A stretch of 29,630 bases of DNA from Acidobacteriota bacterium (GTDB lineage Bacteria; Acidobacteriota; Blastocatellia; Pyrinomonadales; Pyrinomonadaceae): the NCBI GenBank assembly GCA_039931085.1, contig JBDTSO010000001.1, forward strand, positions 1 to 29,630, given 5' to 3'. Made by a program: the position numbers and the translations under genes. The notes beneath the pieces were generated by a model. The model worked only from the letters and a program-made list of their open reading frames with translations. It had not been told where the DNA came from and did not search any database. Positions 12,354-20,299 of the stretch are shown piece by piece (the stretch's first letter is position 1; each line of letters starts with the position of its first letter).

Positions 12354-13154
12354 ATGAATGAAGCAAAAACACAACTCGACGCGGGAAATTTGAATGGCGC
12401 GATGGAAGCAGCTCTGCAAATGGTCAAGGCAAATCCGACGGACGCAGCGGCGCGGACATTTCTTTTTGAACTTTCGTGTTTTGCGGGAAACTGGGATCGC
12501 GCCGAAAAACAACTGGAAGTTATCGGTCATCAAGATGTCAAGGCGATAATCGGCGCACAGATTTTTAAGCAGAATCTTGGCGCGGAACGAGATCGTCTGC
12601 GTCATTTTGCCGATGGTTTGATGCCCGAATGTTTGATGACACCGCCGAAATATGTCGAAGATTTGCTCGTCGCCAATAACCGTCTGCGCGAAGGCAAAAT
12701 CGCCGAAGCGCGGCAGGTTTTAGATAAAATAGAGGAAGAAAGACCGGCTTTTGCCTGTAAAATTAACGGTGAAGAATACAGCGATTTCCGCGATTACAAT
12801 GATTTTACCTGTTGCATTTTTGAAACAATCGTCAAGGATTCTTACGCCTGGATTCCGTTCGAACAAGTCAAAAAAGTTGAATTTGAAGAGCCGAAGAGTC
12901 TGCGCGATCTTTTTTGGGTGCAAACAAAAGTTGAAATGATAAACGGCACGACGGGCGAAATGTTTTTCCCCGCGCTTTACGTCAATTCGTGGAAAAGCGA
13001 TAACGATCAGGTGCGTCTGGGCAGAATGACCGATTGGCAGGATTTGGGCGACGATTTATACATCGGTGAAGGATTGCGCGTTTTTTGGTTTGACGGACAG
13101 GAAAAGGCAATTCTCGGACTGCGTGAAATTGAATTTTTTCATTCGGAAGAATAA
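12354..13154 (+). CDS. tagJ: T6SS accessory protein TagJ (ImpE/SciE family)
   Basis: The TPR-like N-terminus reads RTFLFELSCFAGNWDRAEKQL. The ImpE region reads FRDYNDF...YAWIPF...PKSLRDLFW...PALY...RLGRMTDW. Confidence 0.9.
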   Translation: MNEAKTQLDAGNLNGAMEAALQMVKANPTDAAARTFLFELSCFAGNWDRAEKQLEVIGHQDVKAIIGAQIFKQNLGAERDRLRHFADGLMPECLMTPPKYVEDLLVANNRLREGKIAEARQVLDKIEEERPAFACKINGEEYSDFRDYNDFTCCIFETIVKDSYAWIPFEQVKKVEFEEPKSLRDLFWVQTKVEMINGTTGEMFFPALYVNSWKSDNDQVRLGRMTDWQDLGDDLYIGEGLRVFWFDGQEKAILGLREIEFFHSEE

Positions 13155-14946: not shown

Positions 14947-16434
14947 ATGGCTGATAAAGCAAAACAAAAAGAAGTTGAAGTGCAGGAGCAGGAAGTTCAG
15001 GAAACCAGTCTGCTCGACCAGATTTTGACCGAGGGCAGAATGGCGCGGGACGAATTTCAAAAGGAAAGTGCCAAAGATATGATCGGCGAATTTGTTTCCC
15101 AGGTGATGTCGGGTCAATTAACAATGTCCAAAAATATGGATGTGGCAATTAATTCCCGAATTGCCGAGATTGATCGCCTGCTGACCGAGCAGATGAATGA
15201 AATTATGCACCACGCAGATTTCCAAAAGTTAGAAGGCTCGTGGCGCGGACTTCATCATCTGGTGATGAACAGTCTTACCAGCACACAGCTTAAAATCCGT
15301 GTGATGAGCGTCAACAAAAAAGATTTGTTGAAGGATTTTGAACGCGCGGTCGAATTCGACCAATCGGCATTATTCAAAAAAGTTTATGAAGATGAATACG
15401 GCACTTTCGGCGGCGCACCGTTCGGCGCGTTGATCGGCGATTACGAGTTCGGCAATCATCCGCAGGATATGGCTTTACTTGAAAAATTGTCGGGTGTCGC
15501 GGCGACGGCGCACGCGCCTTTTTTAAGCGCGGCATCACCGGAATTATTCGGTTGGGACGAATATTCGAATATGACTGAAGTACGCGATGTTTCAAAGATT
15601 TTTGACCGCACGGAATATATGAAGTGGCGCAGTTTCCGCGAATCGGAAGATTCGCGCTACGTCGGTTTGACGCTTCCGCGCGTTCTCGGACGAGAACCTT
15701 ACGGCGCGGCGACCAGACCGATTGAGACGTTTAATTTTGAAGAAGAAGTTACCGGCAAAGACCACTCCAAATATTTGTGGAGCAATGCCGCTTACGCTTT
15801 GGGCGTTCGTCTGACTGAGGCTTTTTCGATGCACGGCTGGTGCGTGGCGATTCGCGGCGTGGAAGGCGGCGGCTTGGTTGACGGACTACCGACGCATACG
15901 TTTGAAACCGACGAGGGCGAAATAGCGATGAAATGTCCGACGGAAGTTGCCATCACCGACCGCCGCGAAAAGGAATTTGCCGACAACGGATTTATTCCGC
16001 TCGTTCACTGTAAAAACACCGATTACGCGGCATTTTTCGCCACCCAATCGGCGAACAAAGCGAAGAAATACGATACTGATTCAGCCAATGCCAACGCGCG
16101 GCTTTCAACTCAGCTTCAATACATTTTCGCCGTTTCACGTTTCGCTCATTATTTGAAATCAATGATGCGAGACAAAATCGGCAGCTTTATGTCGCGTGAA
16201 GAGGCGGAAAAATTCTTAAATCGGTGGATAAGCAATTACATTCTGGATAGCGATACCGCGTCGCAAAATGCCAAAGCATCACGTCCGCTGCGCGAAGCTC
16301 GAATTGACGTTGCTGAAATTCCTGGAAAACCCGGCTGCTACAAAGCAGTTGCCTTTTTACGACCGCATTTCCAGCTTGACGAACTCTCGGTTTCATTAAG
16401 ATTAGTCGCGGAATTACCCGCTCAAGTTAAATAA
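14947..16434 (+). CDS. tssC: T6SS contractile sheath large subunit TssC
   Basis: It contains FQKLEGSWRGL, YEDEYGTFGGAPFG, CPTEVAITDRRE and FLRPHFQLDEL. Length is 495 aa. Confidence 0.97.
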   Translation: MADKAKQKEVEVQEQEVQETSLLDQILTEGRMARDEFQKESAKDMIGEFVSQVMSGQLTMSKNMDVAINSRIAEIDRLLTEQMNEIMHHADFQKLEGSWRGLHHLVMNSLTSTQLKIRVMSVNKKDLLKDFERAVEFDQSALFKKVYEDEYGTFGGAPFGALIGDYEFGNHPQDMALLEKLSGVAATAHAPFLSAASPELFGWDEYSNMTEVRDVSKIFDRTEYMKWRSFRESEDSRYVGLTLPRVLGREPYGAATRPIETFNFEEEVTGKDHSKYLWSNAAYALGVRLTEAFSMHGWCVAIRGVEGGGLVDGLPTHTFETDEGEIAMKCPTEVAITDRREKEFADNGFIPLVHCKNTDYAAFFATQSANKAKKYDTDSANANARLSTQLQYIFAVSRFAHYLKSMMRDKIGSFMSREEAEKFLNRWISNYILDSDTASQNAKASRPLREARIDVAEIPGKPGCYKAVAFLRPHFQLDELSVSLRLVAELPAQVK

Positions 16435-16438
16435 ATAA

Positions 16439-16485
16439 AACAGCAAATTATTTTTAGCCATTTATGCAAAAGATAATTTGCTGTT
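16439..16485. repeat. Long stem-loop immediately after the tssC stop
   Basis: AACAGCAAATTAT (16439-16451) and ATAATTTGCTGTT (16473-16485) form a perfect 13-bp stem that extends inward by four more pairs, one of them U-G. No U tract follows. Confidence 0.7.
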
Positions 16486-16525
16486 CGTCAGTTATTTATG
16501 GGATCAAAACTTAATAAACTTTAAG

Positions 16526-16557
16526 TAGCCCAGATAATAAACTCGGCTGTTTTTTTT
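16526..16557 (+). terminator. Weak terminator-like hairpin upstream of hcp
   Basis: TAGCCCAG-ATAATAAA-CTCGGCTG forms an imperfect stem and is followed by T8. Confidence 0.4.
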
Positions 16558-16608
16558 AACAATCGGGTTGGTCAGATAATAAAAATGGTTTAAGGAGAAT
16601 AAAAGAAT

Positions 16609-17097
16609 ATGGCTAACATCTTTATGAAATTGGATTCTTTACAAGGAGAATCTAAACAACAAGACTTTGATGGTTGGATCGAGGTTGAACACGTAAATTA
16701 CAGTGTCCATTCTCCGTCATCAGTCGGAACCGGAACGGGAAGCGGTGTAGGAAAAGCAGAACCGTCACCTATTACTGTCGTCGCCTATCAGGGAGCGCAC
16801 ACGCCTGAGATATCAAAGCGTCAATACGAGGGAATGCATTGGAAGGATGTAACTATCACTTTTTTGAAGCAGACAGGCGCGACATCATCAAAAAACGATA
16901 AGTATTTAGAAATAAAATTGAAGGAAGTATTTTTGGTAGGATTTCAGCCCCAATTAGGAGGAAATGAAAAGCCGCTCGAAACATTTACTTTTACTTATAA
17001 TGATATTGAAATCGAGTATTTCAAACAAAATGATGACGGATCAAATGTTTCGGTAGGTAAGACCGGATATAACACGAAGACAAATGTCGCTCGCTAG
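16609..17097 (+). CDS. hcp: T6SS tube protein Hcp (TssD)
   Basis: It contains IFMKLDSLQGESK...DGWIEV, YLEIKLKEV and PLETFTFTYNDIEIEY. It is 162 aa, has a TAAGGAG RBS and follows tssC. Confidence 0.92.
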   Translation: MANIFMKLDSLQGESKQQDFDGWIEVEHVNYSVHSPSSVGTGTGSGVGKAEPSPITVVAYQGAHTPEISKRQYEGMHWKDVTITFLKQTGATSSKNDKYLEIKLKEVFLVGFQPQLGGNEKPLETFTFTYNDIEIEYFKQNDDGSNVSVGKTGYNTKTNVAR

Positions 17098-17161
17098 GAT
17101 GTTTGAAACTTTTTGTAAAACTTCTCTCTGATTTGAGAAATCTCTTGATTTGAAGAATTTC

Positions 17162-17216
17162 TACGGATTCTGATAGGTTGTATGAAGTTTTCAATCTATT
17201 AGAATCTGTATTTTCT
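17162..17216 (+). terminator. Long hairpin after hcp (terminator or mRNA-stabilising element)
   Basis: TACGGATTCTGATAGGTTG (17162-17180) pairs with CAATCTATTAGAATCTGTA (17192-17210) as a 19-bp stem. All three non-Watson-Crick positions are G-U on the + strand RNA. TTTTCT follows. Confidence 0.65.
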
Positions 17217-17354
17217 GCGACAAAATTTTACTAATCTTTTTAGTTAGAATTCTAACAAAATTTGAAAATCAACAGATAATTCATACAACTGAGCCGTTTT
17301 CAGAATTATTAGTAAAAAGTTACCTTGAGAAAAGGATAAAACAGGCGGAATTTT

Positions 17355-17840
17355 ATGTTTGGCTTACCAGCGTGGGCATTTCGTCCTTTGGCATCAACGT
17401 GGACATTTACAACTTCAGAATCCGGTGAATTTGACGCACTAATCTTTGCCGCCGGTAAAGGATCATTCTATGTAACAGACAGCAGAGATCCAGATGAAAT
17501 CGTTCATGAAATATTATATGTTGGAGCCGGAGTCACCAAAAGTAAGGGTCCTATTCCATTTGGGGTTGGCGGTGCTTTTTCAACACCCGATATGCCAAGC
17601 TCCGGTGTCGGACCAATTATGATGGGATCATCAAAATCTTCTCTGGAATTAAGTGATTTCGAGGGATCGGGAATCATCTTTTCGGCAGCCGCCGGTATCG
17701 GTAAAGGAAAAGATTATGCAATTATTCTTTTCGGGTTACCGCCTTTTACTGTTGCCGGAGGACGAATGGAAGGCATTCAGTATATGGCTCCCGGATTTGG
17801 CTTTACCGCGATGCCTTGCTATTTTACAGTTGATCCCTGA
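17355..17840 (+). CDS. Hypothetical Gly-rich protein (orf161) inside the T6SS core; candidate Hcp-associated effector
   Basis: This 161-aa ORF has an AGGCGG RBS 6 nt before the ATG and an in-frame stop just upstream. It fills the hcp-tssE gap. I do not recognise the family. Confidence 0.75.
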   Translation: MFGLPAWAFRPLASTWTFTTSESGEFDALIFAAGKGSFYVTDSRDPDEIVHEILYVGAGVTKSKGPIPFGVGGAFSTPDMPSSGVGPIMMGSSKSSLELSDFEGSGIIFSAAAGIGKGKDYAIILFGLPPFTVAGGRMEGIQYMAPGFGFTAMPCYFTVDP

Positions 17841-17906
17841 GCAATCTATTAATTTTAACAAACTTTCTAGTTTGTTTATCTCAGAAACCGTTTGTAAACT
17901 CGGAGA

Positions 17907-18395
17907 ATGAAATTGCGGGATAATGAAATCAGGATAACTCCGTCAATCGTTGATCGTCTGCTTGATTTTGAGCCGAAAGTTTCTACTGAAGCACCGAAAT
18001 CGCGCTCGAGAAGTTTGAGCGAATTGAAGCAAGCGGTCAGGCGCGATCTGGAATGGCTTTTGAACACCCGTCATTCTCCGATTGAAATTCCCGAAGGTTT
18101 GGAAGAAATCAACAAATCTATGGCAATTTACGGATTACCGGATTTTACGGGTTTGAGTTCAAAAAATCACGACGACCGAAAAAATTTGATTCACAGCATC
18201 GAAACGGCTCTGCGAATTTTTGAACCGCGCTTTACGAACTTAAAGGTAATACTTGAAGAAATTGACAGTGTTGAAAGAGGCGTTAAATTTCGGATTCAGG
18301 CAACTTTAAAAGTTGAGCCGACACCCGAACCCGTCGTTTTTGATACGTTTCTGCAAGTAGGAAGCGGCGGATTTGAAGTCAAGGAAACCAGTTAA
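17907..18395 (+). CDS. tssE: T6SS baseplate subunit TssE (gp25-like)
   Basis: It contains PSIVDRLLD, RRDLEWLLNTR, YGLPD and FEPRF. Confidence 0.94.
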   Translation: MKLRDNEIRITPSIVDRLLDFEPKVSTEAPKSRSRSLSELKQAVRRDLEWLLNTRHSPIEIPEGLEEINKSMAIYGLPDFTGLSSKNHDDRKNLIHSIETALRIFEPRFTNLKVILEEIDSVERGVKFRIQATLKVEPTPEPVVFDTFLQVGSGGFEVKETS

Positions 18396-18409
18396 AATTT
18401 TCATTTTCA

Positions 18410-20299
18410 ATGCGCGACGAACTTTTAGATTATTACGAACGTGAACTGATTTTTATTCGCCGAATGGGTGCGGATTTTGCACGAAAATATCCGAAGGTCG
18501 CCGCGCGTCTGCTGATTGACGAAGAAAAGATCGAAGACCCGCACGTCGAGCGAATGATTGAGGCTTTCGCTTTTTTAGCCGGACGAATCAATCTGAAACT
18601 TGATGATGAACTGCCGGAAATTACCGAGGCATTTCTGAATGTTATCTATCCTCATTATCTATCGCCGATTCCTTCAATGGCGATTTCGCAGTTTCTCCTC
18701 GGCTCTCCGAAAAATAAAATTACCGCTATTCAGAAAATCGAACGCGGAGCAAAACTTTACTCGCGCCCGATTGACGGTTCGCCTTGTAATTTTAAGACTT
18801 GTTATGACACTCAACTTGTTCCGGTAGAAGTTCTCTACGCTAATTTGGAATCCGTCGCCCCGCCGAACGCGCAGGGAAAACTCACCGATTGCCAGATTCG
18901 CATCAGCCTGAAATGCTTCGGCGACACGATGTTTTCCGAACTGAAAGATGCTGAAACGAGCGAACCGTTGAAGTTTTTGCGCTTTTATCTGAACGGCGAC
19001 CCGCAACTTGTTTTTCCGCTTTACGAATTGATTTTTAATCATTCATCAGCCGTCGAAATTCAGCCGAAAGAAACGCCGATTACCAATAAAACTTCACTCT
19101 CAATGAGTAATATTCAGCTTAAATTACCTGATCCGGTAGTGTTGCCGAAGGAGTCAATCCGCGAAGTCGGTTATTCGATTGACGAGGGAATGCTGCCGTA
19201 TTCAAAAAATTCTTTCGTCGGTTATCGTTTGTTGACGGAATATTTTACATTTCCGCATAAATTTTTGTTTTTTGATATATATGGTCTTGACGAGGCGGCG
19301 CGAAAGAAATTTGGTAATCATTTTGATATTGTAATTCATCTGAAAAATGTTACTCCGCCGCGCGCGCCCATCACATCTGATTCGTTTTTACTCGGTTGTT
19401 CGCCGATTATTAATCTGTTTTCGCTGATTGCCGATCCGATTTATCTTTCGCAGCAAAAATACGAATATCAGATAATTGCCGATATTCATCGTCAGTCTGC
19501 AACGGAAATTTATTCGACCGACGAAGTTTTTACAACTGACCCGCGCACCGGAATTACACGCGAATTTTCTCCGTTTTATTCGTTGAAACACGCTCACGGC
19601 AACCAGAAAGAAAAGGTTTTCTGGTATGCCAATCGCCGCGCGTCGCAAAGACCGAATGACGATGGAACAGAAGTTTTTCTAACTCTGGTGGACAAAAATT
19701 TTAATCCGCGCGTTCCGGCTGAAGAAGTCATTACCGTGAGAAATACCTGCACAAATCGTGATTTACCGGCACGGCTTCCCTTCGGCAGCAAAGAAGGTGA
19801 TTTTGAAATTGAAGGCACGGCTTTGATTTCACGAATTCGCTGTTTGACCAAACCGACGGAAACGATTCGCCCGCCGCAACGCAGGGCTTTGCAGTGGCGT
19901 TTGATTTCACATTTAAATTTAAATTTTTTGTCGCTTGTCGAAAATCAGAATGGCGTTCCCGAAGCCTTGCAAGAGATATTGCAGCTTTATAATTTCAATG
20001 ATTCGGCAGTCAATCACAAACAAATTCTGGGAATCACGGGCATTGAAAGCAGAAAAATCGTGCGGCAAATCGGTAATCGCACCGGCGCGGGATTTGTGCG
20101 CGGAGTTGAAACGACGCTCGAATTTGACGAAGATCAATTCGTCGGCAGCGGATTGTTTGTTTTCGCCAGCGTTCTCGAAAGATTTTTGGGCATTTATACT
20201 TCGCTAAATTCTTTTAACCAATTAGTTATCAAGACAAAGCAGCGCGAAGAAATCGTCAAAAGGTGGATGCCGCGAGCAGGCGATCAGGCGTTATTGTAG
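18410..20299 (+). CDS. tssF: T6SS baseplate subunit TssF
   Basis: It contains LLDYYEREL, EDPHVERMIEAFAFL, GYRLLTEYFTFPHKFLF and the C-terminal LERFLGIYTSLNSF. Length is 629 aa. Confidence 0.96.
   Translation: MRDELLDYYERELIFIRRMGADFARKYPKVAARLLIDEEKIEDPHVERMIEAFAFLAGRINLKLDDELPEITEAFLNVIYPHYLSPIPSMAISQFLLGSPKNKITAIQKIERGAKLYSRPIDGSPCNFKTCYDTQLVPVEVLYANLESVAPPNAQGKLTDCQIRISLKCFGDTMFSELKDAETSEPLKFLRFYLNGDPQLVFPLYELIFNHSSAVEIQPKETPITNKTSLSMSNIQLKLPDPVVLPKESIREVGYSIDEGMLPYSKNSFVGYRLLTEYFTFPHKFLFFDIYGLDEAARKKFGNHFDIVIHLKNVTPPRAPITSDSFLLGCSPIINLFSLIADPIYLSQQKYEYQIIADIHRQSATEIYSTDEVFTTDPRTGITREFSPFYSLKHAHGNQKEKVFWYANRRASQRPNDDGTEVFLTLVDKNFNPRVPAEEVITVRNTCTNRDLPARLPFGSKEGDFEIEGTALISRIRCLTKPTETIRPPQRRALQWRLISHLNLNFLSLVENQNGVPEALQEILQLYNFNDSAVNHKQILGITGIESRKIVRQIGNRTGAGFVRGVETTLEFDEDQFVGSGLFVFASVLERFLGIYTSLNSFNQLVIKTKQREEIVKRWMPRAGDQALL

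Follow-up and report, generated by a model that had tools for sequence, protein, structure and literature searches.

Tse4 (PA2774) of Pseudomonas aeruginosa is a 19.2-kDa effector of the H1 type VI secretion system (T6SS) that depends on Hcp1 for its delivery and co-purifies with it, and the known cargo of Hcp1 ranges from 17.7 to 44.4 kDa (PMC8262886). Tse4 forms ion-selective, voltage-sensitive channels that depolarise the target cell, and it is neutralised by Tsi4 (PMC12169545). Its site of action is the periplasm. Tse4 within the Hcp1 ring has been resolved by cryo-EM at 2.83 Å, and free Tse4 is described there as an eight-stranded, largely hydrophobic beta-barrel with two alpha-helices (preprint 10.64898/2026.06.15.732508). 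Here we compare Tse4 and other Gly-rich barrel proteins with the product of a small gene, gene X, that stands directly behind hcp in a T6SS cluster of a soil bacterium of the Acidobacteriota. In P. aeruginosa, tse4-tsi4 is located away from the H1 cluster. We know of only a few effectors that are carried in the Hcp lumen, and to our knowledge Tse4 has so far been without a catalogued family.

The window, the whole stretch of 29,630 nt that was analysed, contains a complete T6SS cluster on the forward strand (6469-28293, +). Its genes, those around gene X confirmed by Pfam searches, are tssK, tssL, tssM, tagJ, tssA, tssB and tssC, followed by hcp, gene X, tssE, tssF and tssG, and the 3' part of the cluster consists of clpV, a vgrG-M91 peptidase gene, a 250-aa ORF and a PAAR-like gene. 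Gene X (17355-17840, +) is flanked by two Pfam-identified T6SS genes. On its 5' side lies hcp (16609-17097, +; T6SS_HCP), which encodes a 162-aa protein that is the presumed carrier of X, and the next core gene on its 3' side is the gp25-like tssE (17907-18395, +). No terminator-like site was found between hcp, gene X and tssE, and Rfam and promoter/terminator scans of the spacers around gene X found nothing. In the P. aeruginosa H1-T6SS, the slot between hcp and tssE is occupied by TagJ. X is not TagJ because the ImpE/TPR protein (TagJ) of this cluster is encoded elsewhere, at 12354-13154, and X itself contains no Pfam ImpE domain.

The ORF of gene X has a stop-free translation of 161 aa. A purine-rich AGGCGGA lies about 6 nt 5' of its ATG, and no in-frame start was found further upstream. 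The product is a protein of 16.8 kDa with a pI of 4.56, in which 14.9% of the residues are Gly and 13.7% aromatic and His and Cys occur once each. No signal peptide could be discerned, since there is no hydrophobic leader and the barrel begins at about residue 12. A sequence-only reading of this DNA had already described a Gly-rich 161-aa ORF between hcp and tssE, with its own ribosome-binding site and no clear signal peptide. The translation and the identity of the flanking genes bear this description out, and the four segments that had been singled out (LYVGAGV, FGVGGAFS, FSAAAGIGKG and GFGFTAMP) are all present in the protein.

X has no match in Pfam (E 0.01), and neither X nor profiles of its family match NCBIfam models or PDB sequences. 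A search of 5.8 billion proteins found homologues of X, 49-87% identical to it, in 30 clusters (90% identity level), none of which carries a Pfam domain or an informative name. The close homologues come from soil and peat metagenomes, from Labrys neptuniae and from a Bryobacteraceae MAG, and in their alignment with X 34 columns are invariant and the C-terminal [TS][VI]DP is conserved. Between X and eight homologues dN ranges from 0.12 to 0.48 with dS saturated, and dN/dS, where it could be calculated, is 0.07. The X family is under strong purifying selection. At the DNA level, the hcp-X-tssE stretch is near-identical in metagenomes that several studies obtained from soil, roots and rhizosphere, and contigs of four other studies bridge its junctions, one of them (covering 16427-17926) with zero differences. 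The arrangement is present in independent metagenome contigs, which rules out an assembly artefact. Searches for RNA or protein evidence of the locus found none, and no RNA data set contains it. Gene X is a real conserved gene, more than a chance ORF.

Comparison with related clusters showed how gene X came to its position. In eight clusters of the same bacterial family (tssC 79-85% identical), hcp is followed by tssE after 70-134 nt and X is absent. The nearest clusters with the same Hcp type, L046, L048 and L050, match the window in gene order between tssM and clpV, except that hcp is directly followed by tssE. In blastn, window positions 16406-17245 align with L046 5800-6640 and positions 17896-18498 with L046 6644-7246, and the alignment with L050 gave the same, clean borders. 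Since the hcp-tssE junctions of the nearest clusters of this Hcp type lack X, gene X arrived as an insertion of about 650 nt. The inserted segment (17246-17895, +) is composed of a 109-nt leader, gene X and a short tail, and X is its only ORF. The insertion is surrounded by two copies of the tail of the ancestral hcp-tssE spacer, as seen from repeats and from the spacer alignment with L046 and L050. The left copy spans 17192-17245 (+). The right copy (17842-17906, +) begins one base past the X stop codon and reaches the tssE ribosome-binding site; the duplication is partial. The flanking repeats are an exact 10-nt pair 650 nt apart (D12) and a 22-nt pair of 82% identity (D1). No integrase or insertion sequence was found near the insertion, and the GC content is unremarkable. 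The DNA similarity of X to other X genes is confined to the coding part and stops there, and no upstream leader common to them was found. Gene X was inserted alone, directly behind hcp, and the insertion is strain-specific.

The Hcp of the window is of a rare type, with eight clusters among the 5.8 billion proteins. Its identity to the Hcp proteins of same-family genomes is no more than 23-30%, against 52-85% for the other core T6SS genes. In this bacterial family, Hcp seems to have been exchanged or to be evolving at a much higher rate than the other parts of the machine. Because of this low identity a joint replacement of hcp and X as one cassette was first suspected. It was rejected, as clusters with Hcp proteins 86, 67 and 58% identical to that of the window (L046, L048 and L050) lack X and have hcp adjoining tssE. 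Variable genes were also seen next to tssE in a genome of the same class (L039 2331-6402, G050:C10), where the hcp-tssE slot holds two family-less ORFs of 281 and 298 aa and the tssE-tssF spacer is occupied by the gene of a 541-aa methyltransferase whose C-terminal domain is of the PKMT type. The tssE spacers thus act as a landing site for such genes. On the second contig of the closest relative (L047 2071-3961), tssF was called as two ORFs of 181 and 456 aa, a split that points to a frameshift or to an error of assembly.

The structure prediction and Foldseek search that the sequence-only reading had proposed were then carried out. The AlphaFold2 model of X, built from a 26-sequence alignment, is all-beta with a pLDDT of 81.3 and a pTM of 0.78; its weak part is a highly conserved loop, residues 63-80. 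X is predicted to be an eight-stranded Gly-rich beta-barrel. In the Swiss-Prot part of AFDB, the best reviewed match was Tse4 of P. aeruginosa (Q9I069) at E 1.9e-9, and the next entry followed at E 2e-2. Residues 10-158 of X superpose on residues 9-195 of Tse4 with a TM score of 0.74 (query) or 0.62 (hit), both structures being predicted, and the identity in the structural alignment is 19%. An exhaustive structural search of PDB representatives gave the virulence-associated proteins VapB (4cv7, Z 9.8) and VapG (5aeo, Z 9.5) as the best matches, with 105-106 of 110-111 residues aligned at an rmsd of 2.8 and 8-9% identity. The next matches were eight-stranded outer-membrane barrels at Z 5.8, and EipA (5uc0) was reached at Z 4.9. 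In the AFDB clusters and the ESM Atlas, X matches the C-terminal ~130 residues of many Rhs/PT-VENN proteins (TM 0.45-0.66), and further matches were 'hemolysin' entries and the SYLF and EipA barrels. Because one model of X matches Tse4 as well as the Vap proteins, these searches imply that Tse4, Vap and the Gly-rich Rhs tips share one predicted barrel fold. In the literature that was searched, no paper names Tse4 and Rhodococcus equi together.

Other fold assignments were examined in the same searches. A transmembrane OmpA-type barrel was rejected, as such barrels reached only Z 5-6 and the strands of X, read by eye in the sequence, have no consistent lipid-facing pattern. An Eag, DUF4123 or DUF2169 adaptor was likewise rejected, since neither the fold nor Pfam gave a match. 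The DUF992/EipA resemblance that had been suggested from the Gly pattern came down to a generic likeness among small barrels (Z 4.9, TM 0.56) and has no Pfam match.

We then compared X with Tse4 at the sequence level through the Tse4 peptides in S2 Data of PMC12169545, which give complete coverage, reading the motifs by eye. Motifs of the X family, S.W.[FY].T.SGG, [FL].Y..G.G.G.G, L...DF.GPC and ILFG..P, were recognised in the Tse4 peptides in the same order. The last of them is followed by a Gly-rich C-terminal hairpin, as in the X superfamily. Tse4 is absent from the matches of the family profile search described below. After ILFGLDPK, Tse4 carries an Ala-rich stretch of about 30 residues, and at the same position X has only LPPFTVAGGR, while relatives of X that are 180-195 aa long have an insertion there. 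DSSP of the X model found no alpha-helices of the kind that Tse4 has two of. Membership of X in a Tse4 family is supported by its predicted fold and its size; the helical segment and the immunity partner are missing.

The wider family is rare, as a profile search of 1.84 billion representatives returned 97 proteins at E ≤ 1e-3. No Pfam or NCBIfam model matched the barrel part of the 58 family members scanned (Pfam to E 1), and no signal peptides were found in the wider family. Fusions occur among the 28 longer members that were scanned: in eight the barrel is preceded by an N-terminal PG_binding_1 domain, and in six it is joined on its C-terminal side, through a Pro-rich linker, to an OmpA-like domain. 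Leaderless proteins with a peptidoglycan-binding domain need an export route other than Sec, and these fusions would fit periplasmic delivery by such a route. Only W16, S21 and G104 are nearly invariant across the wider family. The polar residues E25, D27, D45, D47, H51, E52, K64 and D101, which are invariant in the close clade, are therefore clade-specific and do not form a shared catalytic site. Within the clade, X is 70% identical between Acidobacteriota and an alphaproteobacterium.

The sequence-only reading had proposed to check whether homologues of X always lie beside hcp or vgrG. This is not so: most of the close homologues stand alone among unrelated genes, with no gene of a T6SS closer than 10 kb. 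Such an orphan position is typical of Hcp cargo genes. Four independent T6SS-linked placements of the family, that of the window included, were found among about 20 contexts examined. In Labrys neptuniae (L001 7294-10855), the X homologue lies between a gene for an 838-aa caspase (Peptidase_C14)-Sel1 protein and a 96-aa PAAR gene in convergent orientation, and it has tagF-pppA-ppkA upstream and tssB-C-hcp-tssE downstream. On a metagenome contig (L030), an X-like gene lies 1.5 kb upstream of tssE. In the acidobacterium G101 (L057 4264-6705, C33), hcp is followed by a 158-aa ORF with four transmembrane segments, a Tse4-like gene that is interrupted by a TAA stop or a frame change, and a 184-aa membrane ORF; the locus has the look of an effector-immunity module of this superfamily that is linked to hcp and is either decaying or mis-sequenced. 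The metagenome contig also encodes, at 574-1131 between the X-like gene and tssE, a 185-aa ORF whose Cys...His pattern (TSCGPASVAM ... GGHF) recalls peptidases of the C39 or papain-like kind; it could be a further effector.

We also examined the co-occurrence of the family with a T6SS. Among 401 genomes of a phylum sample, the close clade is present in one, the genome of the window itself (G000), and a second genome, G394, gave a weak match to the clade profile; the wider family was found in three of the 401, G000 included. TssC is encoded in 44 of these 401 genomes (11%), and it was found in all four carrier genomes searched directly (G000, G394, G401 and G402) and also in G101, and in Labrys, tssB, tssC and hcp are part of the locus itself. 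With carriers that are few and partly related, this co-occurrence is suggestive and falls short of statistical proof.

No plausible small partner ORF was found within 700 nt of gene X, and more than 12 contexts of the close clade contain no conserved or membrane-protein neighbour. The absence of an immunity partner that had been noted for X from the sequence alone thus extends to the close clade. The picture is different in more distant relatives with helical inserts. In one of them (L052), the gene is followed by one for a 162-aa multi-pass membrane protein. In G394 (L014 9916-11147, C3), a 190-aa Tse4-like gene is accompanied by two tandem paralogous ORFs of 126 and 124 aa, each with a single transmembrane segment, and the module is wedged between genes for large polytopic membrane proteins of 705 and 526 aa. 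On a reading of their translations these flanking genes look like nuoL and nuoM, and the module appears to be an effector with double immunity inserted in a respiratory complex I operon. The membrane-protein partners in L052, in G394 and, as a pair flanking the gene, in G101 look like immunity genes. The immunity gene of X may lie elsewhere in the genome, the MAG being 68% complete; alternatively, the X clade may do no harm to its producer.

Taken together, we consider it somewhat better than an even bet that X belongs to the Tse4 fold family and is a T6SS effector carried by Hcp, with membrane action from the periplasm probable and toxicity putative. X would be transcribed together with hcp and tssE, would occupy the lumen of the Hcp hexamer in the way that Tse4 occupies that of Hcp1, and would be fired into the periplasm of a neighbouring cell. 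The hydrophobic barrel would then partition into the membrane and disturb ion homeostasis, as Tse4 channels do; in the clade of X, the target might instead be missing in the producer, or the role might be non-lethal. The size of X and its lack of a leader are compatible with carriage in the Hcp lumen. The toxic step is the least certain because the clade lacks the helical segment, is acidic and never has an adjoining immunity gene. A small Hcp-carried effector was one of the options of the sequence-only reading, and this part gained support: the Tse4 fold match, the insertion behind hcp and the recurrence at T6SS genes in three other lineages speak for it. In the wider family, the leaderless fusions to PG_binding_1 or OmpA domains and the immunity-like membrane partners speak for periplasmic action and toxicity. 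The other options of that reading, a structural accessory or an orphan immunity protein, were not supported, nor was the EipA likeness.

It is possible, though we hold this only tentatively, that X is carried by the T6SS and is not bactericidal, the Tse4-fold barrel having been re-purposed for metal or lipid binding or for fungal or protist membranes. In that case the producer and its kin would need no immunity protein, and it is in favour of this explanation that no close-clade context holds an immunity gene and that the insertion carried one gene only. The hydrophobic helical insert of Tse4 and of the partner-bearing relatives is missing from the clade, which is acidic, the invariant polar residues listed above are specific to that clade, and 70% identity between two phyla is unusual for a toxin in an arms race. 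However, X matches no known family and shows no known motif for metal or lipid binding, and an immunity gene can sit elsewhere in a genome of this completeness. We would extend the same thought, as a minority view, to the compact, acidic, helix-less clade as a whole, in which the Tse4/Vap pore-toxin fold may have been turned into a T6SS cargo that is harmless to its producer, a metal or lipid binder or an effector against eukaryotic or fungal membranes. If true, X would have spread between phyla as a one-gene cassette because no antidote was needed. An anti-fungal or nutrient-scavenging role of X is speculation, for which the lack of an immunity gene leaves room. A gene unrelated to secretion, encoding a small cytoplasmic or envelope barrel that moves as a lone gene and landed by chance in the hcp-tssE spacer, would explain why most close homologues stand alone beside unrelated housekeeping genes and why the PG-domain fusions are found in housekeeping contexts as well. 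We regard it as unlikely. The four independent T6SS-linked placements, the presence of a T6SS in every carrier genome tested against the 11% background, and the match of the fold to a proven Hcp cargo all argue against it; orphan placement is what is normally seen for Hcp cargo, and the leaderless peptidoglycan-binding relatives need a non-Sec export. Least probable, and in our judgement very improbable, is that X is an accessory of the machine with a structural or regulatory role, or an orphan immunity or decoy protein directed at incoming Tse4-like toxins. Its position among core genes and the fusion of distant relatives to OmpA-like domains would be in keeping with such a role. The nearest relatives, whose clusters are otherwise identical, and the eight same-family clusters lack X, so the machine does not need it, and an adaptor of the Eag, DUF4123 or DUF2169 type is not matched by its fold. 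Tse4-type toxins act from the periplasm, and X has no peptidoglycan-binding domain, transmembrane segment or signal peptide; for orphan immunity there is no positive evidence.

X and its 58 scanned family members lie outside any Pfam or NCBIfam model and represent an uncatalogued family of soil Acidobacteriota and Alphaproteobacteria. Under the effector reading, the X locus is a natural 'minimal' version of a Tse4-like effector, from which the helical segment has been lost and which moves without an immunity gene. If this minimal version is still toxic, the question becomes how the producer protects itself; if it is not, X is an example of the re-use of a pore-toxin scaffold. Labrys neptuniae is cultivable and carries an X homologue in its T6SS cluster, so that these possibilities are directly testable.

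Among the known systems, the EipA/DUF1134 (5uc0) and SYLF/Ysc84 lipid-binding barrels are small and Gly-rich like X and gave a weak fold match (Z 4.9; TM 0.56-0.58). X has no sequence or Pfam match to either, and the fit is far weaker than that to Tse4 or Vap. EipA is a Sec-exported periplasmic protein, whereas X has no signal peptide, and X was rejected as an EipA/DUF1134 member on these grounds. The Vap proteins of Rhodococcus (Prescottella) equi (VapA/B/D/G; R_equi_Vir, PF05526), of which VapA acts on membranes, resemble X more closely, being compact, Gly-rich, eight-stranded barrels. They differ in having a Sec signal and a disordered N-terminal region, neither of which is present in X, and in their Gram-positive host-pathogen setting. 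No match to R_equi_Vir was obtained for X or, at E 1, for any of the 58 family members. X is therefore not assigned to PF05526, in spite of the barrel fold that it is predicted to share. The Gly-rich C-terminal toxin tips of Rhs/PT-VENN proteins, for which Tse5-CT is the studied functional analogue, are alike in predicted fold, with no sequence link shown. They and X would all be delivered by a T6SS, probably to act on membranes. Rhs tips are accompanied by lipoprotein or membrane immunity genes, whereas X stands alone, without an Rhs cocoon or PAAR.

The closest likeness is that to Tse4. Both proteins are small (16.8 and 19.2 kDa), leaderless and linked to hcp and the T6SS, both are predicted to be eight-stranded Gly-rich barrels, and both contain, by eye, the same motifs in the same order. 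Some relatives of X have membrane-protein partners, as would be expected of an effector-immunity pair. X differs from Tse4 in being acidic (pI 4.6) rather than basic (pI 9.5), in lacking the Ala-rich helical segment of about 30 aa and an adjoining immunity gene, and in being encoded inside the core cluster directly after hcp. Through the predicted barrel, this locus ties an uncatalogued family, the Tse4 fold, the Vap barrels of Rhodococcus and the Gly-rich Rhs tips into one rare superfamily.
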